Source: a virus (taxonomy: Duplodnaviria > Heunggongvirae > Uroviricota > Caudoviricetes). Taken from it: a DNA stretch of 64,000 nucleotides. Made by a program: the position numbers and the translations under genes. Under the pieces are notes generated by a model. That model was given only the letters and a program-made list of their open reading frames with translations. It searched no databases and had not been told where the DNA came from. Below, piece by piece: positions 4,886 through 60,031 of the stretch; positions within the stretch are counted from its first letter, which is position 1, and each line of letters opens with the position of its first letter. The stretch lies in the IMG/VR virus record IMGVR_UViG_3300020718_000011, positions 1 to 64,000 of that record, one strand, 5' to 3'.

Positions 4886-4940
4886 TCTTTAACATTTAGT
4901 ATTTTTTTTGTCAAAGACTTTTTATTATATTTGTATGTTT
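4886..4940 (+). promoter_or_regulatory. class-A phage promoter (TCTTTAACA...TATATTTG)
   Basis: ttctttaacatttagtattttttttgtcaaagactttttattatatttgtatg; -7 box TATATTTG = Bacteroidota TAnnTTTG; about 15 nt before ATG 4955. Confidence 0.6.
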
Positions 4941-6872: not shown

Positions 6873-7384
6873 TGGACACAAATAATATAGTTGAGAAAAT
6901 TGAGAAAATCCTAGGGATTAGGATAAAGAATATTGATCTCCAAACTCCTATTAAGGAAATTACCCATAAGGAAGCATTAACGGATTTGGATGCTGTTGAA
7001 AAGTATATCATTGAATTGCGTAGGGCTATCAAGAAAATGCCAGTAATAGTAGAGGCAGACCGAATACCTCCTGGGCTTGATCCACATCAGGTAATTTTGG
7101 AAACTGATAAGTGGCTCAAAGAAAGGAAAATGACAAATCCAGATTGGGAAATTCTTTGGATTCATCCTAAAACAGGACAAGTAGTATATTCCAAATATCT
7201 CTGCGATCCAGAAGACGATGGGTATATTAAAGGATTCCAAATAGCATTTGATATAAGCACTAATAAAATGATTTGCCGTAACTGCGATAATATTTGGGTA
7301 TCTTTAAATTCAAGGGGATTCGTAAGAGTAGAAGGCTCATTAGAAGAATTTAAAACAACTTATTCAAAATGGACAAACAAATAG
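6872..7384 (+). CDS. hypothetical protein
   Basis: 170-aa ORF; no recognisable motif. Confidence 0.5.
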   Translation: MDTNNIVEKIEKILGIRIKNIDLQTPIKEITHKEALTDLDAVEKYIIELRRAIKKMPVIVEADRIPPGLDPHQVILETDKWLKERKMTNPDWEILWIHPKTGQVVYSKYLCDPEDDGYIKGFQIAFDISTNKMICRNCDNIWVSLNSRGFVRVEGSLEEFKTTYSKWTNK

Positions 7385-8655: not shown

Positions 8656-9255
8656 CTAGTTAATCCTATTACTCTTTTTAATATTATCAATTTTCCATAA
8701 TGGTTGAAAATTACTATAATGATTTAATTTAATAAGATCCTCTTCATTTAAAGCCGAACTAATAGGTATTATATGATCATATTCCCATTCACCATAATTA
8801 TTCCATGACATCCCATCCACGAATTTATTCTCTATCCATATTTTAAATTCTTTATACGAACAACCCAAGATTCTATATGTTTTTGATGTTTTTGTATATC
8901 CTTGATTTTTAATAGCATTTCTTATAAGATTTCTAATGTTACTACTCATTTTAAAAATAGGATCAATATTTCGTTTTTCGTTCACATAATTGTTTCTCTT
9001 TTTTCTAATTTTTGTTAGCTCTATTTCAGATTTTTTAATTGAACTTTTATCTTTAATTTTTACTTTTTCTCTATAATAATTTTTTGCATATTCGTTTAGT
9101 TTTTTTCTGTTATTTTTACTATATTGATTAGAATAATTTTTCCTTCTCCCTAACTCTTCGGGGTCCTTATGAGTTTCTAAATATAATTTAGTTCTATTAG
9201 AGATAGTTTCCTTGTTCTTTTTATAATATTCCTTATAATATTCTTTCCTATCCAT
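8656..9255 (-). CDS. HNH homing endonuclease
   Basis: C-terminal ILGCSY..W..DHIIPISSA...NHYSNFQPLW..DN..KSN His-Me finger motifs; Lys/Tyr-rich YYKEYYKKNKE N-terminal repeats. Confidence 0.8.
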   Translation of the reverse strand: MDRKEYYKEYYKKNKETISNRTKLYLETHKDPEELGRRKNYSNQYSKNNRKKLNEYAKNYYREKVKIKDKSSIKKSEIELTKIRKKRNNYVNEKRNIDPIFKMSSNIRNLIRNAIKNQGYTKTSKTYRILGCSYKEFKIWIENKFVDGMSWNNYGEWEYDHIIPISSALNEEDLIKLNHYSNFQPLWKIDNIKKSNRIN

Positions 9256-10344: not shown

Positions 10345-10970
10345 TGTGGAACGAACAAGAAGCTGATGTTTACCTAGAAAAGGTATTAACAAATCTCGAA
10401 AGAATTAAACCATTTGAGGTAACAGTTCTTACTGGAGCCAATGGTTCTGGTAAATCATTAGTTCGTAAGGTCCTACCACAAAGGATGGCAGAGGAATTAA
10501 ATATACCAAAGGAAAGGGTTATAGGATCTACCTCGATGGAAAGAAGAATGGGAACACCATTCCTAAGTGATAGCCCATGGCAGCCAACCTCTATGGAAAC
10601 ATGGAATCAGATACGCCAAATCTTAAATCAACTGGATCGTTATATTGTTATAGATGAACCGGAAATTGGTACTGACGAGGATGTCCAAATGGCAATCATA
10701 GGTAAAATAAATGATGCGGTAAAGGAAGTTTATGACAAAGGGGATTTTAAAGGTTGCCTTATCATTACCCATAGCAAATTATTTGTTCGCCTTATCAGAC
10801 ATCACCAATTTATAAACCTTAATGGTTTAAGTGAGGATGAATGGCTAGATCGGTTACCAGTAAGAGCAGATCTGGAAGAATTAAAACATAATACTCACGA
10901 ATTAAAACATAATACTCACGAATTATTTCTGGCGGTAGAACGTCGAATTAAAGCTAATAAAGATAAGTAA
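10341..10970 (+). CDS. P-loop ATPase (ABC/AAA-like)
   Basis: Walker A LTGANGSGKS, Walker B YIVIDEPEIGTDED, H-loop IITHS; C-terminal in-frame ELKHNTH tandem duplication. Confidence 0.55.
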   Translation: MMWNEQEADVYLEKVLTNLERIKPFEVTVLTGANGSGKSLVRKVLPQRMAEELNIPKERVIGSTSMERRMGTPFLSDSPWQPTSMETWNQIRQILNQLDRYIVIDEPEIGTDEDVQMAIIGKINDAVKEVYDKGDFKGCLIITHSKLFVRLIRHHQFINLNGLSEDEWLDRLPVRADLEELKHNTHELKHNTHELFLAVERRIKANKDK

Positions 10971-16259: not shown

Positions 16260-16622
16260 ATGAAAATTCTAAAATTGGCTGCATTGACAGCTATAGCCGT
16301 AAATGGCTCGAACACAGCAATCCCTGAATGGGCAAAAGAAAGTATTTGGGATCTTACAACAGAAGGTTATATAGCCCCACGGGTTATTGCTGCTGTTTCG
16401 GTAGATCCCCCGGGATACGTAGTAACAGAAAAAGGGCAGAAGCTGGTATCTATGTTGGAGGCATGTTCTGACTATTTCGGGGTGCACCAGGATCTAAAAG
16501 AGGGTGCAGCAGAAGCATACTCCGCAGCCAAAGAGGATACAGGAAAAATTATTAACGAGGGAAAGAAGAAGTTTAACAGTATGTTGGATTTTCTGAAAAT
16601 TCCATTACATGAAGAAAAATGA
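16260..16622 (+). CDS. putative secreted protein
   Basis: N-terminal MKILKLAALTAIAVNGSNTA signal-like segment; TGA/ATG coupling to rtcB. Confidence 0.45.
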   Translation: MKILKLAALTAIAVNGSNTAIPEWAKESIWDLTTEGYIAPRVIAAVSVDPPGYVVTEKGQKLVSMLEACSDYFGVHQDLKEGAAEAYSAAKEDTGKIINEGKKKFNSMLDFLKIPLHEEK

Positions 16623-17836
16623 CAGAAAAACAAATTGCAGTAGATTATTTCTGCGAACCTGATAAGATTGATGAGAATGCTAAAGCCCAATTAGACCAGT
16701 ATAGTAAAATGCCGGGATTGGAGAAGCTTTGTGCTTTCCCTGACATCCACTTTTGTGACGAGAAAGCCATTCCAGTAGGTGTGGCTTTCTCTACTCGGGG
16801 TATATTCTATCCACTCGTAACCGGCAAAGATGTTGGGTGTGGTGTTGGCTATGCCCGAATAGGAAAAAAGTATTTACTAAAACCTTTTGATAAGAGCAAA
16901 CATTACAATGCTTTGGAACGGGCTCATCGTGATATGACCGACGAAGGATTGGGGGGAGGAAATCATTTTCTATCTTTGGAAGAGGATGACGAATATCTTT
17001 ATGTCATTTGCCATACTGGTACAAGGAATAGGGGTATAGCTCTTTACCAAGAAGGCTATCAAATGGTAAAAGAATACTCCAATGAAATTGGGGAGGAGGT
17101 TAAGTATGTTTCCTGGGAATGGATGAGAGAGAAACATCCAGAATACTTAATGAGCGTTTTGAGAATTCCGGATTATGCAACCAAGCGCAGGGCGGATTTC
17201 GTATTCAAAACAATAACCTTCCTTCAAAAGAATGGGTATCTGGAAAACACAAAGCCCATAGAAAAAGATTACTTGTCCCGAGATTATTGGATTAAATCAA
17301 TAATGGATGAATACCATCCTGATCTTGGTATACCAGGGAAGGAGTGGCTCCCAAAGACAAAAAGGACTCCAATTGAAATAAATGGGATACCTTATGAGTG
17401 GCATGATTCGATGCACAATCATTTAGAATTCAAAGAAGATGGATCAATAATACACAGGAAAGGAAGTACGGAAATAAATCCTGGCGATGAGGTAGCTATT
17501 CCCCTTTCGATGACCAGGGGAACATTGATAGTAAAGGTTCATCCGTTTCATGATATAACAGGAGCACTTAATTCTTGTTCTCATGGAGCAGGTAGAAAGC
17601 TATCACGATTTGATTCCATGAAACATTGGCGAACAGTACTGAAGGCTAAGGAAAGAAAAGCATATGAGGAAAGGTTTTCGGAGCTACTTGATAAGAGTGG
17701 GAAATTTCCTTCTGGATACCTCCAGGAATTTGACTACGCATACAAAGATTCGTCGGACATTCTGACGATGCAACCATATTTAAGAAAGGTAACTCAAACA
17801 ATACCTATTGTAACTATTAAATACACAGAAATCTAA
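16619..17836 (+). CDS. rtcB: RNA-splicing ligase RtcB
   Basis: GKDVGCGVGYA, GGGNHFLSLEED, ICHTGTRNRG, WHDSMHNH and SHGAGRKLSR line up with RtcB metal/GTP motifs (GvDIGCGm, GGGNHF, HSGSRG, HNhA, HGAGR); 405 aa. Confidence 0.75.
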   Translation: MTEKQIAVDYFCEPDKIDENAKAQLDQYSKMPGLEKLCAFPDIHFCDEKAIPVGVAFSTRGIFYPLVTGKDVGCGVGYARIGKKYLLKPFDKSKHYNALERAHRDMTDEGLGGGNHFLSLEEDDEYLYVICHTGTRNRGIALYQEGYQMVKEYSNEIGEEVKYVSWEWMREKHPEYLMSVLRIPDYATKRRADFVFKTITFLQKNGYLENTKPIEKDYLSRDYWIKSIMDEYHPDLGIPGKEWLPKTKRTPIEINGIPYEWHDSMHNHLEFKEDGSIIHRKGSTEINPGDEVAIPLSMTRGTLIVKVHPFHDITGALNSCSHGAGRKLSRFDSMKHWRTVLKAKERKAYEERFSELLDKSGKFPSGYLQEFDYAYKDSSDILTMQPYLRKVTQTIPIVTIKYTEI

Positions 17837-51177: not shown

Positions 51178-51795
51178 CTATATAATTTTATTACTCTTTT
51201 TTAAATTATCTAATTTCCATAATGGTTGTAGATTTGTATAATGGTTTAATTTAATAACCTCTTCGAATGTTGTCGCACTATCTAATGGTATTATGTGGTC
51301 TATATGCCATTTTCCATAATTTTCTATAGTCATTCCATCTACAAATTTAGATTTAATATACTCTACGAAAAATTCAGGTGTACAACCTAATATATCAAAT
51401 GTCTTACTTTCTTTAACTAATCCTTTCCTCTTAAAAGAACCATATACTAAGTTTCTAGTATTGGCTTTAAATTTATACAATGGGTCAATTTTCATTCTGT
51501 TCTTACGGTACTCTTTCATTTCTTCCTTTACTTCAGAATATGGCTTTCTCTTTTTTGGTTTAATCTTATAGTATTCGTTTTGCTTTTTATTAAGTTCTTT
51601 TCTCTTTTCTGGTTCCTTTCTATTTTCTAGTATACTCCCTTTATTTTTTAGATAGTAACTATTAGACTCTTCCTTTATCTTATCCTCATTCTTTTTGTAA
51701 TACTCCTTTTTATATTTCCTAATTTTCTCTTTATTAAGTTCTCTATATTTTTTCTGGTACTCACTCATATTTTGAGTCTTATTGGGTTCTTTCAT
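51178..51795 (-). CDS. HNH homing endonuclease
   Basis: DPLYKF...ILGCTPE..W..DHIIPLDSA..NHYTNLQPLW..DN..KSN; KEYYKKNEDKIKEE N-terminal repeats; ATATATA box upstream. Confidence 0.8.
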   Translation of the reverse strand: MKEPNKTQNMSEYQKKYRELNKEKIRKYKKEYYKKNEDKIKEESNSYYLKNKGSILENRKEPEKRKELNKKQNEYYKIKPKKRKPYSEVKEEMKEYRKNRMKIDPLYKFKANTRNLVYGSFKRKGLVKESKTFDILGCTPEFFVEYIKSKFVDGMTIENYGKWHIDHIIPLDSATTFEEVIKLNHYTNLQPLWKLDNLKKSNKII

Positions 51796-51830: not shown

Positions 51831-51891
51831 CCTAATTTTTAGAAAACTTATTACGCATAACGAAAACGCACACAATTAAATTCCTTAACAA

Positions 51892-51950
51892 ATCTTTAAC
51901 TTAAAAAATTTTTTTATCTTGAAAACATGCTTTATATTTGCTTTATCAAT
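51892..51950 (+). promoter_or_regulatory. class-A phage promoter
   Basis: aatctttaacttaaaaaatttttttatcttgaaaacatgctttatatttgctttatca; drives 51984; this sequence block is duplicated at 56850. Confidence 0.55.
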
Positions 51951-51983
51951 TTAATTATTAACAATTAAACAAGTTTAAAAAAA

Positions 51984-52526
51984 ATGGAAAAGACAGCATC
52001 GGCCAACACGGCCACAGACACAAAAACAACCGGAGCACAGGGTGCAGAGGTTGTAGTAACAGAGCAGCCTGCTGCAAGCAGCGTTAGCATCGTTCCAACA
52101 GCGGTAGCCGTAGAGGTACCAAAAGTTCGCCTGTTCTGGCAGAAAGCGTGCGGATCTATGAAGGATTCTACCCTTACGCCAATTAAAGACGACGAAGTAT
52201 TTGTAAGGACCTCTCACCAGGTAGGCGTTATCCCTGCCGGCGCACCGGATGGCACTGCACCAGTTGCAGAGACCGTTTACAGCATGAAGCGCGGTAAAAG
52301 GATCTACTACACACCTTCTTCTTTCATTACCGATGCACAGCGTCTCGCTGCTGATACCGCGACTGACCTCAAGGTAAAAGAGAAAGAGGCAGCAGCCAAG
52401 GTAAAGGCTGATGAAAAAGCCAAGAAAGAGCAGGCGAAAAAGGATGCGGCAGCAGCCGGTCCAAAAGTAGTAGCTGGCCCAACAGTGGTAGCGGCTCCGG
52501 CAACAATTACCGAAAAATCTCTCTAA
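51984..52526 (+). CDS. Ala/Lys/Thr-rich protein, paralog A of a duplicated pair
   Basis: Core VPKVRLFWQKACGS..TLTPIKDDEVFVRT.H.VGVIPAGA..GTAPV..VYSMKRGKRIYYTPSSFITDAQR with AKVKADEKAKKEQAKKDAAAAGPKVVAG tail; GC and codon usage above background; own promoter and bidirectional terminator. Confidence 0.55.
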   Translation: MEKTASANTATDTKTTGAQGAEVVVTEQPAASSVSIVPTAVAVEVPKVRLFWQKACGSMKDSTLTPIKDDEVFVRTSHQVGVIPAGAPDGTAPVAETVYSMKRGKRIYYTPSSFITDAQRLAADTATDLKVKEKEAAAKVKADEKAKKEQAKKDAAAAGPKVVAGPTVVAAPATITEKSL

Positions 52527-54580: not shown

Positions 54581-54908
54581 GGTTCGTGGTAGATTTAATT
54601 AGTTAGATAATTGTAATGGGGTTATTTCTTCTTTACGAAGTACTTATAGTATAGAACCGCACAAATGATAATTGCTACTACCATATATGCTTGAGGTTCC
54701 GTTTCTGCCTGTAGAAATAATGGACTTCGGATATGGAGAGTGGAAACTTGCATATTGGTATCGTTTTTGAGGATAAGTCAATAAAATGATATTAACAAAA
54801 TCTTAGAGCAAATTTAATGAAAAGTTAACAAATAAAAAAATCCAAAATGTTAAATTTGCGTTAAAGAATTTTAACATCTCCCGGCTTAATTCTGTATACT
54901 TATTTCCT

Positions 54909-54921: not shown

Positions 54922-55734
54922 ATGAAAGGTTATATTTATAAAATAACAAGCCCATCTGGTAAAGTTTATATAGGTCAAACTAAAAATATTTCTAATAGGA
55001 AGAATAGTTATAAAGGATTTAATACTCCTAGCACTTCTATAAAAGCTCAAATTAAATTATATAATAGTCTTAGTAAATATGGATGGGATAATCATAAATT
55101 TGAAGTTATAGATGAATGTCAATTTTGTGGTATTAATAATTGGCTATTGGATTCTTTAGAAATTCATTGGATAAATGAATATGATAGTTTTAATAATGGA
55201 TTAAACTGTACTAAAGGTGGATCTGGCCAGTGCGGACATAAACATTCAATAGAAGCTAAACTAAAAATGGGTAACTCAATGAAGGGAAGGGTTATGTCAG
55301 AGCAAACTAAACAAAAAATAAGTAATTCAAACAAAGGAATACTTATTCACACAAAAAGAAAACCTCTTTCTGATGAGACCAAACAAAGAATAAGTAATTC
55401 AAATAAAGGAAGAACTCATGCTAAATACGAGAGAACCCCTCATTCAGAGGAAACTAAACAAAAGATGAGTAATTCTCAAAAGGGTAGGGTACCATCAGAA
55501 GAAACTAAAAAGAAAATAAGTAATTCTAAAAAAGGAACGGTATGTTCAGAAGAAACTAAACAAAAGATGAGTAATTCTCAAAAGGGTAGGGTTACATCAG
55601 AAGAAACTAAACAAAAAATAAGTAGTTCACACAAAGGAAAGAAACAAATCCCGCATTCAGAAGAAACTAAAAAGAAAATAAGTAATTCTCTTAAGTCAAA
55701 GAAAACTAATTTGAATAATCTACTTCTATTCTAA
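54922..55734 (+). CDS. GIY-YIG homing endonuclease with NUMOD3-like repeats
   Basis: MKGYIYKITSPSGKVYIGQT (GIY-YIG), KYGWDNHKFEVI, NGLNCTKGG; about 7 repeated SEETKQKISNS(N/Q)KG(R) modules; ATATATA box upstream. Confidence 0.8.
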   Translation: MKGYIYKITSPSGKVYIGQTKNISNRKNSYKGFNTPSTSIKAQIKLYNSLSKYGWDNHKFEVIDECQFCGINNWLLDSLEIHWINEYDSFNNGLNCTKGGSGQCGHKHSIEAKLKMGNSMKGRVMSEQTKQKISNSNKGILIHTKRKPLSDETKQRISNSNKGRTHAKYERTPHSEETKQKMSNSQKGRVPSEETKKKISNSKKGTVCSEETKQKMSNSQKGRVTSEETKQKISSSHKGKKQIPHSEETKKKISNSLKSKKTNLNNLLLF

Positions 55735-56344: not shown

Positions 56345-56443
56345 TTTTAAGAAAGAATTTAATATAACGTAAATATACATAAAATATTTTAAGGTTAAAA
56401 ATCAATAGCTGTAATATTTTGTTAAAGAAATTATTTATACACA

Positions 56444-56625
56444 TTAACAACTCCCTAACAATTTATTCAAAAACTATTGTTTATTATTCGCGCTCGTGCG
56501 CCCACCCGCGCGAGGAGAATTTCGCAGAGGCACCCCCGCGCATGATATTACAATGAGTTTAAAAGCTTTAACAACTCCCTAACAATTTATTCAAAAACTA
56601 TTGTTTATTATTCACACGAGCGTAC
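56444..56625. repeat. two 47-bp perfect direct repeats, each abutting a GC-rich quasi-palindrome
   Basis: TTAACAACTCCCTAACAATTTATTCAAAAACTATTGTTTATTATTC at 56444-56490 and 56568-56614; followed by gcgctcgtgcgcccacccgcgcg and, inverted, cacgagcgtacgcgcacgc. Confidence 0.7.
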
Positions 56626-56701: not shown

Positions 56702-56775
56702 TTCTTTAACATTACCTTAACAACATTTATTTTTTTATTTTGAAACGATTCTTTAAATTTGCTTCAACAATTTAA
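56702..56775 (+). promoter_or_regulatory. class-A phage promoter (upstream copy of a tandem pair)
   Basis: ttctttaacattaccttaacaacatttatttttttattttgaaacgattctttaaatttgcttcaaca; TAAATTTG box. Confidence 0.45.
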
Positions 56776-56849
56776 TTATTAACAATACAAAAAATAATTA
56801 AAATGGAGTATAAAAAAACGAAACGAAACTCTATTAAATTCATTAACAA

Positions 56850-56910
56850 ATCTTTAACTTTAAAAATTTTTTTATCTTAAAACGATTTCTTAAATTTGCT
56901 TTATCAATTT
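56850..56910 (+). promoter_or_regulatory. class-A phage promoter
   Basis: atctttaactttaaaaatttttttatcttaaaacgatttcttaaatttgctttatca; drives 56940. Confidence 0.55.
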
Positions 56911-56939
56911 AATTATTAATAATCAAAAATCAAAAAAAA

Positions 56940-57653
56940 ATGAGCAACAACAAACACAGTAAAGGACGCGGCGCAGCCGGTCACACAACAGGCAGCGAGC
57001 ACACTTCTGCTGAACACACTGACACTGCAATCGACACTGCAATCGACACTGCAGAACACACTGACACCGCAACGGAAGAAACCAAAACGGAAACTACCGA
57101 GGCCAGCGCAGAACACACCGACCCCGCAACAGAAACTGCAGAACACACAGAGCCAGCACCAGAAGTGAAAGTTACTGAAACACCTGCTGCTTCTACCCTG
57201 TCTATCGTGCCAACCGCAGTGGCCAAGGAAGTACCAAAAGTTCGTCTCTTCTGGCAGAAAGCGTGCGGATCAATAAAAGAAAGCACTCTCACCCCTATCA
57301 AGGATGATGAAGTATTCGTTCGCACTGCCCACACCGTAGGTGTCATCCCTGCAGGTGCAGCAGAAGGTACTGCACCTGTTATCGAAATCGTTTACAGCAT
57401 GAAGCGCGGTAAAAGGATCTACTACACACCTTCTTCTTTCATTACCGATGCACAGCGCGTTGCAGCCGACCTGGCCACTAATACGAAGAACGCAGAAAAG
57501 GAAACCGCAGCCAAAGTAAAGGCTGATGAAAAACTGAAAAAAGAGCAGGCGAAAAAGGACGCAGCCGCAGCCGGTCCTAAGGTAGTAGCGGGAGCAACAA
57601 TAGTTGCCGCACCAGCAGCAGCCACAGAAACCGCTACCGAAGAAGTAAAATAA
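56940..57653 (+). CDS. Ala/Lys/Thr-rich protein, paralog B
   Basis: Same conserved core and AKVKADEKLKKEQAKKDAAAAGPKVVAG tail as 51984-52526, plus N-terminal AEHTDTAIDTAIDTAEHTDTA repeats; tandem promoters upstream; terminator downstream. Confidence 0.55.
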   Translation: MSNNKHSKGRGAAGHTTGSEHTSAEHTDTAIDTAIDTAEHTDTATEETKTETTEASAEHTDPATETAEHTEPAPEVKVTETPAASTLSIVPTAVAKEVPKVRLFWQKACGSIKESTLTPIKDDEVFVRTAHTVGVIPAGAAEGTAPVIEIVYSMKRGKRIYYTPSSFITDAQRVAADLATNTKNAEKETAAKVKADEKLKKEQAKKDAAAAGPKVVAGATIVAAPAAATETATEEVK

Positions 57654-57711
57654 GAATATCCCATTTCGGGTATCATATTAAAGATGTCCGTGGCGGATTA
57701 GGTTAGAGAAC

Positions 57712-57748
57712 AAAACCCCGGCGGCGTAAGCTCGCTGGGGTTTTCTGT
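57712..57748 (+). terminator. intrinsic terminator after paralog B
   Basis: aaaaccccggcggcgtaagctcgctggggttttctgtg: stem AAAACCCC/GGGGTTTT with an extended inner stem, then a T-run; followed by the 14-bp palindrome tgtgtagctacaca. Confidence 0.6.
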
Positions 57749-57812
57749 GTAGCTACACATCTTAAAAAATCATATATTATTAAACACTGGACCGATGGGT
57801 TGTAGAGGGCGC

Positions 57813-58400
57813 CTACAAAATTTTATTACTTTTCCATATGTTATCAGAAGCCCATAATGGTTGAAAATTACTGTAATGGTTTAATTTAATTATCTCATCC
57901 TCGTTGGTTGCACTATCTATTGGTATGATATGGTCAAAATGCCATTTACCATAATTAGACCAATCCATTCCTTCCGTAAATTTATTCTCAATCCATATTT
58001 TAAATTCCTCATAAGAGCAGCCAAGTATTTGGTAAGTAGAGGATTTTTTCGTATAACCATTTCTACGAATACTTTGTGCTATGGTTCTTTTAATCTTTTG
58101 GTGTAATTTATAAAGTGGATCTACCTTCATTCTTTCTCTAAGACGTAATTTCCTTCTACTACTTCTCTCTTCTTTTGTTAGTGGTATTTTAGGTTCCTTT
58201 TTTGGAAGTTTTTCGTAGCATCTCTTTTTGGCAGCTACGCATTTCTCTTTATTGTTTTTATAATACTCTTTTTGGTATTCCTTCTTACTTTCCTTATTTC
58301 TTTCATACCATTCTGCCATTCCAGTCCTTTTGTGCATAATTTTTATTTTTATATATCTAATGTTTACGTCTCGAAAACCAGGAATTCTGTGTTTATACAC
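57813..58400 (-). CDS. HNH homing endonuclease
   Basis: DPLYKL..ILGCSYEEFKIW..DHIIPIDSA..NHYSNFQPLW..DN..KSN; true start probably an internal Met (MHKRTG/MAEWYER), which is preceded by an ATATATA box. Confidence 0.75.
   Translation of the reverse strand: MYKHRIPGFRDVNIRYIKIKIMHKRTGMAEWYERNKESKKEYQKEYYKNNKEKCVAAKKRCYEKLPKKEPKIPLTKEERSSRRKLRLRERMKVDPLYKLHQKIKRTIAQSIRRNGYTKKSSTYQILGCSYEEFKIWIENKFTEGMDWSNYGKWHFDHIIPIDSATNEDEIIKLNHYSNFQPLWASDNIWKSNKIL
58349..58360 (-). promoter_or_regulatory. class-B ATATATA box
   Basis: Minus strand reads agatatataaaaataaaaattATG before the internal start of HNH 57813-58400. Confidence 0.3.
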
Positions 58401-58403
58401 ATT

Positions 58404-58461
58404 CTTTAACGTTATCTTAACAAATAGTATTTCACAATACAGAAACGATTTGTTATATTTG
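58404..58461 (+). promoter_or_regulatory. class-A phage promoter with no downstream protein gene
   Basis: ttctttaacgttatcttaacaaatagtatttcacaatacagaaacgatttgttatatttg; TATATTTG; about 190 nt later an intrinsic terminator, no substantial ORF. Confidence 0.45.
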
Positions 58462-58464
58462 CTT

Positions 58465-58661
58465 TTTAATAATAATTATTTAAGCGTACCTAAATTGTTT
58501 GACTATGATAAGGAATAAAGGTTCTCCATAAGTAGTAACTTATTTATTATATTATATTTAGATTATGTCCGAAGACCGAATAAGTCCAGAGTAGGAAAAG
58601 ATTAATTTAGTTTGAGAATGGCAGGATAGAATTAGTTACTATTCTGCCATTTTTGTTTTTT
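58465..58661 (+). ncRNA. candidate about 190-nt non-coding transcript (promoter to terminator, no ORF)
   Basis: Class-A promoter 58404-58461 followed by only tiny ORFs (under 12 codons) and the strong terminator at 58617-58661. Confidence 0.3.
58617..58661 (+). terminator. plus-strand intrinsic terminator
   Basis: tggcaggatag-aattagtta-ctattctgcca: 11-bp stem (one G.U), then TTTTTGTTTTTT; overlaps the 3' end of minus-strand GIY-YIG gene. Confidence 0.6.
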
Positions 58662-59330
58662 AGAGTGAGCTATCTTTAATGAATTACTCATCTTTTGTTT
58701 GGCTTCAGGAGTATTAAATTTTTCCTTCATCATAAGTTTTAATTTTAACTTATGCTCATCAGATAATGGTTTTCTTTTAGCCCTATTATTACCTTCCCTA
58801 ATTTTTTGTTTAGTCTCTTCAGATATAGGATTTCTAGTTTTACCCTTTAATGAGATGGATATTTTCTTCTTAGTTTCATCCGTAACAAATTTACGTTTAT
58901 CTATTTTTGGTTGATCTATTTTAGCCTTAGCTATTTTTGGTTTACTATCTCTATCTTTTATTAATCCCAATAAATTTCTATTTTTATTTCCTTTTAATGA
59001 ATTGGATATTTTTATTTTCATCTCTTCGGATATACTAGTAGTTCCACCACCTCCTTCCGTACAATTTAATCCATCCTTAAATGAGTTAAATTTAGAAATC
59101 CAGTATATCTCTCTTTCAAAAAGTATAGGGTCCTTATTATTATCCAATGTGAGTTCTTCTATTACTTCTTTAGTATGATTCTCCCATCCATATTTATTTA
59201 CGGACCAATATAATTTATGTTGTTTCCTATCAACTCCATATTTATATCTTTCGTTTATACTATTTTTAGTTGTACACCCTATATAAATACGTCCGGTTGG
59301 GCTAGTAATTTTATAGATAAGTCCTTTCAT
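58632..59330 (-). CDS. GIY-YIG homing endonuclease with NUMOD3-like repeats
   Basis: MKGLIYKITSPTGRIYIGCT, KYGWENHTKEVIEEL, DGLNCTEGGGG; repeated SEEMKIKISNSLKG / TDETKKKISISLKG / SEETKQKIREGN modules. Confidence 0.8.
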   Translation of the reverse strand: MKGLIYKITSPTGRIYIGCTTKNSINERYKYGVDRKQHKLYWSVNKYGWENHTKEVIEELTLDNNKDPILFEREIYWISKFNSFKDGLNCTEGGGGTTSISEEMKIKISNSLKGNKNRNLLGLIKDRDSKPKIAKAKIDQPKIDKRKFVTDETKKKISISLKGKTRNPISEETKQKIREGNNRAKRKPLSDEHKLKLKLMMKEKFNTPEAKQKMSNSLKIAHSKKQKWQNSN

Positions 59331-59332
59331 GT

Positions 59333-59345
59333 TACTATATATTGC
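59333..59345 (-). promoter_or_regulatory. class-B ATATATA box
   Basis: Minus strand reads caatatatagtaacATG before GIY-YIG 59330. Confidence 0.3.
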
Positions 59346-59470
59346 TCTTACTTATACATCATTGCCTGGGTGTTAAGTAGATAACAATTTTAGCAGAGTT
59401 TTTCATTTTAGTTCCAGCTATTAATACATATTTGTTTTTCTTATATTACTCAACAAAATGCCCTATAATA

Positions 59471-59520
59471 ATCACTTTGGTATATCACTTTGGTCGATTT
59501 TAAGGCATATTTAAAGCGAC
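59471..59520. repeat. intergenic element copy 3
   Basis: tcactttggtatatcactttggtcgattttaaggcatatttaaagcgaccag; arms tttggtcg/cgaccag. Confidence 0.55.
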
Positions 59521-59620
59521 CAGAAGTAATTATAATATCATCAATAATGCCCCCGGGGTGGTGCTGAAATTTTGACACCAAAATAAAGACCTTCTGTGGT
59601 CAGGTAAAAATACTTTATAA

Positions 59621-59680
59621 TTTCTTTAACGATGGTAATTTTTTTATTTGATAACTATTTATTACATTTGTCTTATAATT
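59621..59680 (+). promoter_or_regulatory. class-A phage promoter
   Basis: ttctttaacgatggtaatttttttatttgataactatttattacatttgtcttata; drives 59687. Confidence 0.6.
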
Positions 59681-59686
59681 TTTTAT

Positions 59687-60031
59687 ATGAAACTTTCAAA
59701 GATAGTAGACCACATACAAACGATGCCACAGGGACTTAATGCCGAGGCACGTGATAAACATTGGTCCAAGCTAAAATTAACCGAAAACGAGATGCTATTA
59801 GCAGAGCGTTACTATAATGTAGAATGCTATGTTAGCTTACCAGATTGGGGAAGGTTTTGGTTAATGTGGGATATGTCTAACGGTCACAAGGGAGGTAAAG
59901 GTTATATGTGGGTGTTCCGTACTAAAAAGGAAGCTCTTGACCATAAGAGAGACCAGAAAAAAAGAGGTGGTGCTTCTTTAAGTTTACCACAAAAGGTGGA
60001 AATACCAAACCGTAAGAATATTTACAATTAA
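59687..60031 (+). CDS. hypothetical protein
   Basis: Track ORF begins with a TTG inside promoter 59621-59680; ATG Met MKLSKIVDH chosen. Confidence 0.45.
   Translation: MKLSKIVDHIQTMPQGLNAEARDKHWSKLKLTENEMLLAERYYNVECYVSLPDWGRFWLMWDMSNGHKGGKGYMWVFRTKKEALDHKRDQKKRGGASLSLPQKVEIPNRKNIYN

Follow-up and report, generated by a model that had tools for sequence, protein, structure and literature searches.

What is encoded by some 260 base pairs (bp) of phage DNA that carry a promoter and a terminator of their own and, between them, no gene of ordinary length? The question is raised by positions 58,404 to 58,661 of a 64,000-nucleotide (nt) stretch of a Caudoviricetes genome (IMG/VR record IMGVR_UViG_3300020718_000011, positions 1 to 64,000), hereafter the window, where the unit lies between two endonuclease genes of the opposite strand. 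Because promoter, transcribed body and a compensating terminator are conserved in related phages, the unit is very likely a discrete, autonomous small transcription unit that produces a functional small RNA (sRNA). As for the part of this RNA on which selection acts, an even chance is given here to the reading that its functional core is a translated mini-open reading frame (mini-ORF) of eight codons, MIRNKGSP, kept for the sake of its peptide.

Conservation of the transcription unit

The window is AT-rich (GC about 33%), with small and tightly packed genes that lie mostly on the plus strand. The protein encoded at 56940-57653 is also found on a metagenomic contig of 473,921 bp, which points to a jumbo phage (about 474 kb, freshwater). 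Relatives of the locus were reached through homologues of the 56940 and 60321 proteins, which led to three other lineages: L001 (the same contig as L002 and L006), L029 and L004 (a lineage that also comprises L005 and L037). These closely related contigs come from freshwater metagenomes. In addition, contig L025 represents a strain identical to the window across 331 nt, with both endonuclease genes present. The contig of the window also turns up in sample TB18AUG2009E (3300000203), where the prefix TB may stand for Trout Bog, and in 3300020716. Megablast and blastn searches against 50,697 phage records gave a DNA-level match solely for the HNH gene, in Flavobacterium phages, and a search of IMG/VR with the two flanking proteins returned no relative. 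In the relatives, orthologues of the genes at 55706 (minus strand), 56940, 60321 and 61425 (all plus strand) stand in unchanged order. In L001, L029 and L004, the 56940 orthologue is followed by a homologue of window positions 58375-58661 with 72-79% identity (blastn and alignments), directly 3' of which stands a homologue of 59353-59678, here termed Block B, with 74-82% identity. The more distant relatives L021 and L023 are without the unit and retain the core of Block B.

At this syntenic site the three lineages have the unit and neither endonuclease gene, which identifies the two genes as insertions on either side of an older unit. The ORF at 57813-58400 (minus strand) matches endonuclease VII in PHROG and is similar to genes annotated as HNH in Flavobacterium phages; its insertion is bounded by about 57714 and 58374, and homology with the endonuclease-free relatives restarts at 58375. 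The GIY-YIG insertion is bounded by about 58662 and about 59352. The stop codon of the GIY-YIG gene (58632-58634) falls within the terminator hairpin of the unit, so that, on this comparison, the last ten or so codons of the gene are seen to run into a pre-existing terminator, and the overlap is best read as a by-product of the insertion site. Free-standing homing endonucleases appear here to have inserted precisely between transcription units and to have treated a 260-bp unit like a gene.

Transcription would start from a promoter of the Bacteroidota type. The sequence of 58403-58461 reads TTCTTTAACGTTATCTTAAC...TATATTTG, and TATATTTG at 58454-58461 agrees with the sigma-A-type -7 box of this phylum, TAnnTTTG or TAHHTTTG (PMC6847099, PMC9723704). 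At the -33 position, 20 nt upstream of the box, the window has TTTC and its relatives have TTTT (consensus TTTG, about 19-21 nt upstream), an element that is weak and AT-rich in Flavobacterium-type promoters (PMC6847099). The G of the -7 box sits at -5 in Flavobacterium promoters (PMC6847099), and by this rule transcription of the unit is predicted to start at about 58466. A generic sigma-70 scan likewise places this promoter first among the sites of the region (TTCACA-17-TATATT; 10 of 12 positions match, and a TG is present). By itself, TAnnTTTG is not enriched in the window (99 sites, 88 expected); preceded by TTAAC, as TTAAC-N(20-45)-TAnnTTTG, it occurs at 27 sites against 3.8 +/- 2.1 in shuffled sequence, and none of 100 shuffles reaches 27. 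Nearly all of these sites share the identical spacing TTAAC-N32-box and are placed directly 5' of ORFs. The site of the unit (58417-58461) fits this geometry exactly and has an extra TTAAC 11 nt upstream, a double-TTAAC subtype that is also seen at 51885, 54864 (minus strand), 56706 and 56843. The family, which shows a run of T between TTAAC and the box, includes sites at 4889, 9296, 13790, 21920, 31844, 43327, 47131 (minus strand), 51885, 56706, 56843, 59626, 60048, 63098 and 63920. The fixed TTAAC suggests the site of a phage-encoded activator, or a UP-like element, on top of a host sigma-A box. Defined from this locus, TTAAC-N32-TAnnTTTG represents a strong phage promoter family.

At the other end of the unit, the terminator folds at -20.6 kcal/mol, compared with -7.7 +/- 2.0 in shuffled sequences (z-score, z = -6.35; none of 200 shuffles is equally stable). 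Its stem has a GC-containing core of about 12 bp that is lengthened to 17 bp by A-U and G-U pairs, and a simple terminator scan overlooked it because loops were limited to 8 nt and this one has 9. A stable, GC-containing hairpin followed by a U-tract is found in the window and in all relatives, where it stands at the same place and is strong (z from -4.2 to -5.9), the stem sequence of the window being wholly different. Between L001 and L004, the stem shows one compensatory change from A-U to G-C and one change from G-U to G-C. A strong hairpin in every lineage despite differing sequence indicates that what is conserved at this place is termination and not sequence.

On the plus strand, just three ORFs begin with AUG between about 58466 and the terminator, and they have 8, 9 and 3 codons. 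Frames of at least 20 amino acids on either strand are limited to the two endonuclease genes and one TTG frame of 62 amino acids that begins upstream of the promoter. An earlier note, made from the sequence of the stretch alone, had described a rightward promoter at 58404-58461, a strong terminator at 58617-58661, no long ORF between them, and flanking HNH and GIY-YIG genes of the opposite strand, the 3' end of the latter being overlapped by the terminator hairpin. This layout holds throughout: the promoter is borne out by its box, its TTAAC elements and the enrichment of its family, the terminator by the hairpin at 58613-58655 with its TTTTTGTTTTTT, the flanking genes by PHROG and Pfam matches, and the overlap by the stop codon inside the hairpin, while no ORF between promoter and terminator exceeds 10 codons. 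The proposal of a non-coding small RNA survives in part, as the stand-alone small transcript is conserved in three lineages, while the term non-coding is probably incomplete in view of a conserved eight-codon frame that shows synonymous variation; the unit may be a tiny coding gene or an RNA with two functions.

Conservation along the unit is uneven. In an alignment of the four lineages (A4), invariant columns make up 68% of the promoter, 29% of the first part of the 5' untranslated region (UTR), which has indels, 80% of the 15 nt 5' of the AUG (12 of 15), 78% of the 27-nt mini-ORF, 20% of the roughly 80-120 nt that follow it, where indels are large, and 33% of the terminator. The best-conserved transcribed part is made up of the 42 nt at 58490-58531.

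The eight-codon reading frame and alternative explanations

MIRNKGSP (MTRNKGSP in L004) is the sole ORF common to all lineages, and it opens with the first AUG of each predicted transcript. This AUG lies 44 nt past the G of the -7 box, the same spacing as in paralogous promoter-gene pairs (44 nt from 51940 to 51984 and 42 nt from 56898 to 56940). Across the unit copies in the lineages, A is invariant at -3, -12 and -13, positions at which ribosome profiling of Flavobacterium johnsoniae found A to be a positive determinant of initiation independent of a Shine-Dalgarno (SD) sequence (PMC6847099). An upstream extension of the ORF was rejected, as the window and L004 have an in-frame stop and no start codon before it. 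Among six copies, codons 2-8 contain six variable sites, five of which are third positions with synonymous variation, each in a codon of its own (ATA/ATT, AGA/AGG, AAA/AAG, TCT/TCA and CCA/CCC); the sixth exchanges Ile for Thr. Read in the two alternative frames, the same six changes would include one that is synonymous in the first case and none in the second. A post hoc randomisation of sites and bases gives p = 0.0013 under uniform and p = 0.0007 under AT-biased substitution, a pattern that points to selection on the peptide.

The frame also recurs in a very different phage. A pattern scan of JGI metagenomes returned the L001 contig again, L007, which was rejected as a GC-rich false positive, and one further carrier, L008 (contig Ga0208375_1000751, also L033; 22% GC). 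L008 shows no similarity to the window by tblastx, and its genes are phage-type (dUTPase, RuvC-like, tail-sheath-like). Two tandem copies of the core ATAAGAAATAAAGGTTCTCCMTAA, both counted among the six compared above, lie there on the minus strand at about 14580-14320 (L033 4826-5100), together with a vestigial repeat that reads MSEK and a stop, 3' of the last gene of an operon and 5' of a bidirectional terminator. The first copy encodes MIRNKGSP followed by a stop. In the second copy ATG has been replaced by ATA, and an in-frame ATG five codons upstream yields MPEKKIIRNKGSP and a stop. Since weaker similarity between L008 and the window reaches into the flanks (ACTTAAA..T upstream and ATTATGYCNGAA downstream), the units are taken to be homologous and not convergent. 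Direct comparison likewise identifies window positions 58562-58594 as an apparent decayed version of the second L008 copy. In L030 and L031, two close relatives of L008, the motif is absent, and the unit is thus not syntenic there.

According to the reading favoured here, a promoter of the phage's own family (double-TTAAC subtype, as at 51984 and 56940) would start an RNA of about 190 nt that ends at the strong intrinsic terminator, in phages whose hosts would be of the Bacteroidota type; the HNH and GIY-YIG genes are later insertions alongside. The functional core would be the first AUG with the eight codons M-(I/T)-R-N-K-G-S-P-UAA rather than a folded RNA. Translation would proceed through the SD-independent, A-rich initiation mode of Bacteroidota, and selection would act on the amino acids, especially on the C-terminal IRNKGSP. 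More speculatively, the peptide itself might exert the effect, either free, as an octapeptide, or as a nascent chain whose Pro-UAA end is a poor context for translation termination and is known to slow it; the remaining RNA might serve mainly stability and termination, and the same RNA could also base-pair and thereby have a dual function. A bolder version, which we regard as rather improbable, would place the octapeptide gene among the smallest proposed for a phage. Through the conserved C-terminal IRNKGSP, its short nascent chain, arrested on the ribosome at Pro-UAA, would reprogramme host translation, or its free product would be an effector or communication peptide, and promoter, minigene and terminator would form a cassette that moves horizontally between unrelated large phages.

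Several observations weigh against selection on the peptide. The synonymous-site test is post hoc and covers six sites only, in four lineages and one distant contig. The 15 nt before the AUG are conserved like the ORF itself, and their three variable sites would also be silent in frame, although this block has no start codon; initiation determinants may explain part of the conservation of this upstream block, and an additional constraint at the RNA or DNA level may act alongside. That 24 nt are nearly identical in phages otherwise so different might just as well result from a constraint on RNA or DNA, and we know of no function for a free, unmodified cytoplasmic peptide of eight amino acids. 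Finally, a scan of IMG/VR with four patterns of the unit gave zero matches, which marks the family as rare.

The strongest alternative, unlikely but with a real share of the probability, is a trans-acting sRNA in which the unstructured block at 58490-58531 is the seed for pairing with an mRNA of the phage or its host, perhaps at a start region such as UUAUGGAGAACC, and in which the mini-ORF is incidental. The architecture of the unit, with its own promoter, an intrinsic terminator and a length of about 190 nt, would suit such an RNA, as would a conserved block that is predicted to be largely unpaired and conservation that reaches 15 nt 5' of the AUG. When this block was paired with 135 start regions of the window using RNAduplex, the best partner was ORF 13261, whose -28.1 kcal/mol marginally exceeds the best of 100 shuffles (-28.0 kcal/mol); this duplex, however, depends on an AGG codon specific to the window and is hence not conserved. 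An 18-mer complementary to the core occurs nowhere else in the window, even with up to three mismatches allowed, and the related loci contain no exact copy of such a complement outside the unit. Among 185,579 GTDB genomes, the 21-mer core has 12 matches, all of them chance occurrences within coding regions of unrelated taxa, so that there is no evident host counterpart that could be mimicked. Moreover, a seed does not predict substitutions that are synonymous and follow a period of 3 nt, and a non-coding RNA is hard to reconcile with five of six variable sites being synonymous in one frame (p about 0.001).

Family searches and fold predictions, which the earlier note had named as checks of its sRNA proposal, also bear on this alternative. 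A scan of 57600-59700 against Rfam 15 found no family at the gathering threshold and only chance-level matches, the best within the unit being a 19-bit microRNA match to the terminator (E = 4.1). ARAGORN detected neither a transfer RNA (tRNA) nor a transfer-messenger RNA (tmRNA). Structure prediction recovered the terminator hairpin and no conserved fold beyond it: whole-transcript folds are unremarkable (z = -1.8 in the window and -1.2 in L008), and in the RNAalifold consensus the terminator alone is robust. A helix of 9 bp, GGUUCUCC:GGAGGAC, is strong in L004, yet it was rejected as it is broken in the window and in L001.

If the mini-ORF is translated, it might act in cis, as a leader peptide or attenuator whose translation or stalling sets the balance between termination and read-through into Block B (59353-59620) and the next genes. 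The order of promoter, short ORF with a Pro-UAA end and terminator, with the ORF 81 nt before the hairpin, would be appropriate, and in the endonuclease-free relatives the conserved Block B, without a canonical family promoter, comes right after the terminator. When transcripts are truncated ahead of the terminator's 3' arm, however, they fold with non-homologous partners in each lineage, and no antiterminator is common to them; U-tracts and stems appear constitutive, and the next protein gene has a family promoter of its own (59626). The phage of the window tolerates the separation of terminator and Block B by 700 bp of an endonuclease gene on the opposite strand, and the L008 unit ends at a terminator that faces a convergent gene, so that no downstream gene is there to be regulated. 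An attenuator is therefore given little probability.

Equally doubtful is a DNA-level explanation, in which the unit is a protein-binding site, or a relic made of a duplicated 56940-type promoter and a leftover terminator, and its RNA is functionless. The promoter is indeed paralogous to those at 56706, 56843 and 51885, and a TTTAAC-like motif (GTTTAAC in relatives) lies inside the conserved block. A relic would not be expected to retain its promoter, its ORF and a terminator with compensating changes in lineages that share 72-79% identity, or to recur in tandem in the unrelated phage L008, and a binding site does not predict variation at third positions. That the unit is antisense to the 3' end of the GIY-YIG gene, as the earlier note had suggested, and thereby controls the endonuclease in cis, is highly improbable beyond a side effect: the last 27 nt or so of the transcript (58632-58658) do overlap the coding end of this gene, and any minus-strand transcript that read through from GIY-YIG into HNH would be complementary to the unit along its full length, but L001, L029 and L004 keep the unit with neither gene at the locus.

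Comparison with known short genes and regulatory RNAs

Among known systems, the unit appears to be most like a minigene, a leader peptide or a dual-function sRNA, and its sequence family is previously undescribed. In the bar minigenes of phage lambda (AUG AUA UAA), translation acts by sequestering peptidyl-tRNA, without any folded protein; this effect is governed by which codon and tRNA are involved and requires a host in which Pth is limiting. The unit shares a very short ORF with bar and with synthetic minigenes of 3-8 codons; its ORF opens with AUG AUA as well, and the third codon is AGG or AGA. Both minigenes of this length (3-8 codons) and AGA/AGG codons at early positions are discussed in PMC2490762. 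With eight codons, the first AUG and A at -3, -12 and -13, the unit falls within the size range of bar-type minigenes (2-8 codons) and has the features expected for initiation. Unlike bar, it lets synonymous codons vary freely while its amino acids are kept; it also comes with a promoter and a terminator of its own and is maintained in different phages. Such freedom at synonymous positions disfavours tRNA sequestration of the lambda bar kind and favours an effect of the peptide.

Leader and arrest peptides (TnaC, SecM, ErmCL, the cat and cmlA leaders and the 8-codon toiL) are likewise encoded by short ORFs under selection at the amino acid level, often end near Pro and a stop, and are found at the 5' end of a transcript, ahead of a terminator or structured RNA. 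These peptides, however, govern a downstream gene on the same mRNA, whereas for the unit neither an antiterminator, looked for in the truncated-transcript folds, nor a dependent gene was found, and the unit survives separation from downstream DNA by an endonuclease gene. Trans-acting and dual-function sRNAs, including SgrS/SgrT, RNAIII/hld, SR1/SR1P and GibS of Bacteroides, resemble the unit in their stand-alone promoter and intrinsic terminator, in a length between 100 and 250 nt, and in a stretch of single-stranded sequence that is conserved. The dual-function sRNAs known to us encode peptides of at least 26 amino acids, and the unit differs from known sRNAs in that no target was found in the window and related loci, and neither conserved stem-loops nor a matching Rfam family came to light.

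A precedent for real genes of fewer than 10 codons is mccA, the 7-codon gene of the microcin C precursor, whose product has a C-terminal Asn and needs the adjacent MccB. In contrast, the peptide of the unit ends in Pro, and its neighbours are endonucleases and proteins without Pfam or PHROG matches, with no MccB among them. Signalling peptides such as AimP of the arbitrium system, Phr and SHP/XIP are made as pro-peptides that have an export signal and a receptor gene next to their own, and in AimP, Phr and XIP the active part consists of the C-terminal 5-8 residues. The shared C-terminal IRNKGSP and the variable N-termini in L008 resemble AimP, Phr and XIP; in contrast to signalling peptides of the arbitrium/RRNPP type, eight amino acids are too short for a signal sequence, and no receptor is evident among the neighbours, which lack Pfam matches, although no search aimed at receptors was made.

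Frames below about 15 codons are usually skipped by gene callers and by surveys of small ORFs, and sRNA surveys take such units as non-coding. If the mini-ORF is translated, phage genomes contain a class of mini-genes that is invisible to current annotation, and the unit would offer a compact system in which to test how very short peptides, or their translation, act in infected Bacteroidota, a phylum in which initiation without an SD sequence is itself little understood.

Features of the locus and neighbouring genes

Table 1. Features of the unit and its flanks in the window.
Feature	Position	Strand	Remarks
HNH/EndoVII-type endonuclease gene (context only)	57813-58341	-	likely true start ATG at 58339-58341
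Two upstream TTAAC elements	58406-58410, 58417-58421	+	invariant in four lineages; the proximal one has the family geometry TTAAC-N32-TAnnTTTG
Core promoter	58430-58461	+	TTTC, -33-like (58430-58433, T-rich); 20-nt spacer; -7 box TATATTTG (58454-58461)
Predicted primary transcript	58466-58658	+	about 190 nt, from the positions of promoter and terminator; about 198-235 nt in relatives
Pre-AUG block CTAAATTGTTTGACT	58490-58504	+	A at -13, -12, -11 and -3; 12 of 15 columns invariant
Mini-ORF ATG ATA AGG AAT AAA GGT TCT CCA TAA (MIRNKGSP, stop)	58505-58531	+	first AUG of the transcript
Degenerate second repeat copy (ATTATGTCCGAAGACCGAATAAG^TCCA...)	58562-58594	+	by direct sequence comparison; matches the intact second L008 mini-ORF with a 12-nt in-frame deletion
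GAGTAGG, then purine run	58589-58602	+	conserved; GGGGGAGGA in L001 and L004, GGAGGAAGA in L029
Intrinsic terminator	58613-58661	+	17-bp stem 58613-58629/58639-58655, 9-nt loop, then TTTTTGTTTTTT
GIY-YIG/NUMOD3 endonuclease gene (context only)	58632-59330	-	GIY-YIG homing-endonuclease PHROGs and Pfam NUMOD3

Downstream of the mini-ORF (Table 1), a second ORF, MSEDRISPE (58565-58594), was rejected as a gene, as it is not conserved and has no ATG in L001 and L029. Block B (59353-59620, also at about 120-215) is non-coding and better conserved than the unit, with 82% identity to L001; its counterparts in relatives lie at L001 4529-4857, L004 15432-15800, L021 about 10760-10800 and L023 about 7225-7265. 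A 22-mer within it, ATAACAATTTTAGCAGAGTTTT, is invariant, and the block also has a hairpin, TTTGGTCG...CGACCA, whose core is repeated elsewhere in the window and is kept in distant relatives without the mini-gene unit. No canonical family promoter was found in Block B, which could be a second non-coding RNA, a site bound by a protein or a small ORF that starts with TTG (MVDFKxDLKRP...).

Further free-standing endonuclease-like genes, besides the two that flank the unit, are located at 8656-9255 (minus strand), 51178-51795 (minus strand) and 54922-55734 (plus strand). Sequence at the 3' end of 8656-9255 is common to the HNH gene at 57813, and 54922-55734 has a weak GIY-YIG match in Pfam, found on the identical-strain contig L025. 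Each of the four minus-strand genes of this kind lies between the terminator of one plus-strand unit and the next promoter. Elsewhere in the window, 16619-17836 encodes an RtcB-type RNA ligase (Pfam 1.7e-24), and no tRNA gene was found in the 64 kb.

The genes at 51984-52526 and 56940-57653 are paralogous, with a GC content of 41-46% against 33% for the genome and with tails rich in Ala and Lys. Their proteins have no Pfam or PHROG match and are probably highly expressed. Relatives have two to three copies of this gene family per contig, with the double-TTAAC promoter subtype that is also seen at the mini-gene. In the window the 56940 promoter is tandemly duplicated (56706 and 56843; 56703-56898), and it is single in L001, L004 and L021; a 25-codon ORF that follows the 56706 promoter was rejected as a by-product of this window-specific duplication. 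On the minus strand, at 54582-54864, a double-TTAAC promoter precedes an ORF of about 44 codons with a hydrophobic product (MQVSTLHIRSPLFLQ...), after which comes an ATG at 54582. This ORF is another small gene that is missed by ORF lists with a cut-off of 60 amino acids, and an apparent similarity between the unit and the 5' UTR after the 54864 promoter was dismissed, as it is confined to the promoter. Finally, the AT-rich spacer at 56436-56612 has two copies of a roughly 46-nt direct repeat (TTAACAACTCCCTAACAATTTATTCAAAAACTATTGTTTATTATTC). Each copy is followed by a markedly GC-rich run (GCGCTCGTGCGCCCACCCGCGCGAGG... and CACGAGCGTACGCGCACGCAC), and a similar run, CGCATGCATGCGCACGCGCACGCAC, is present in L001.

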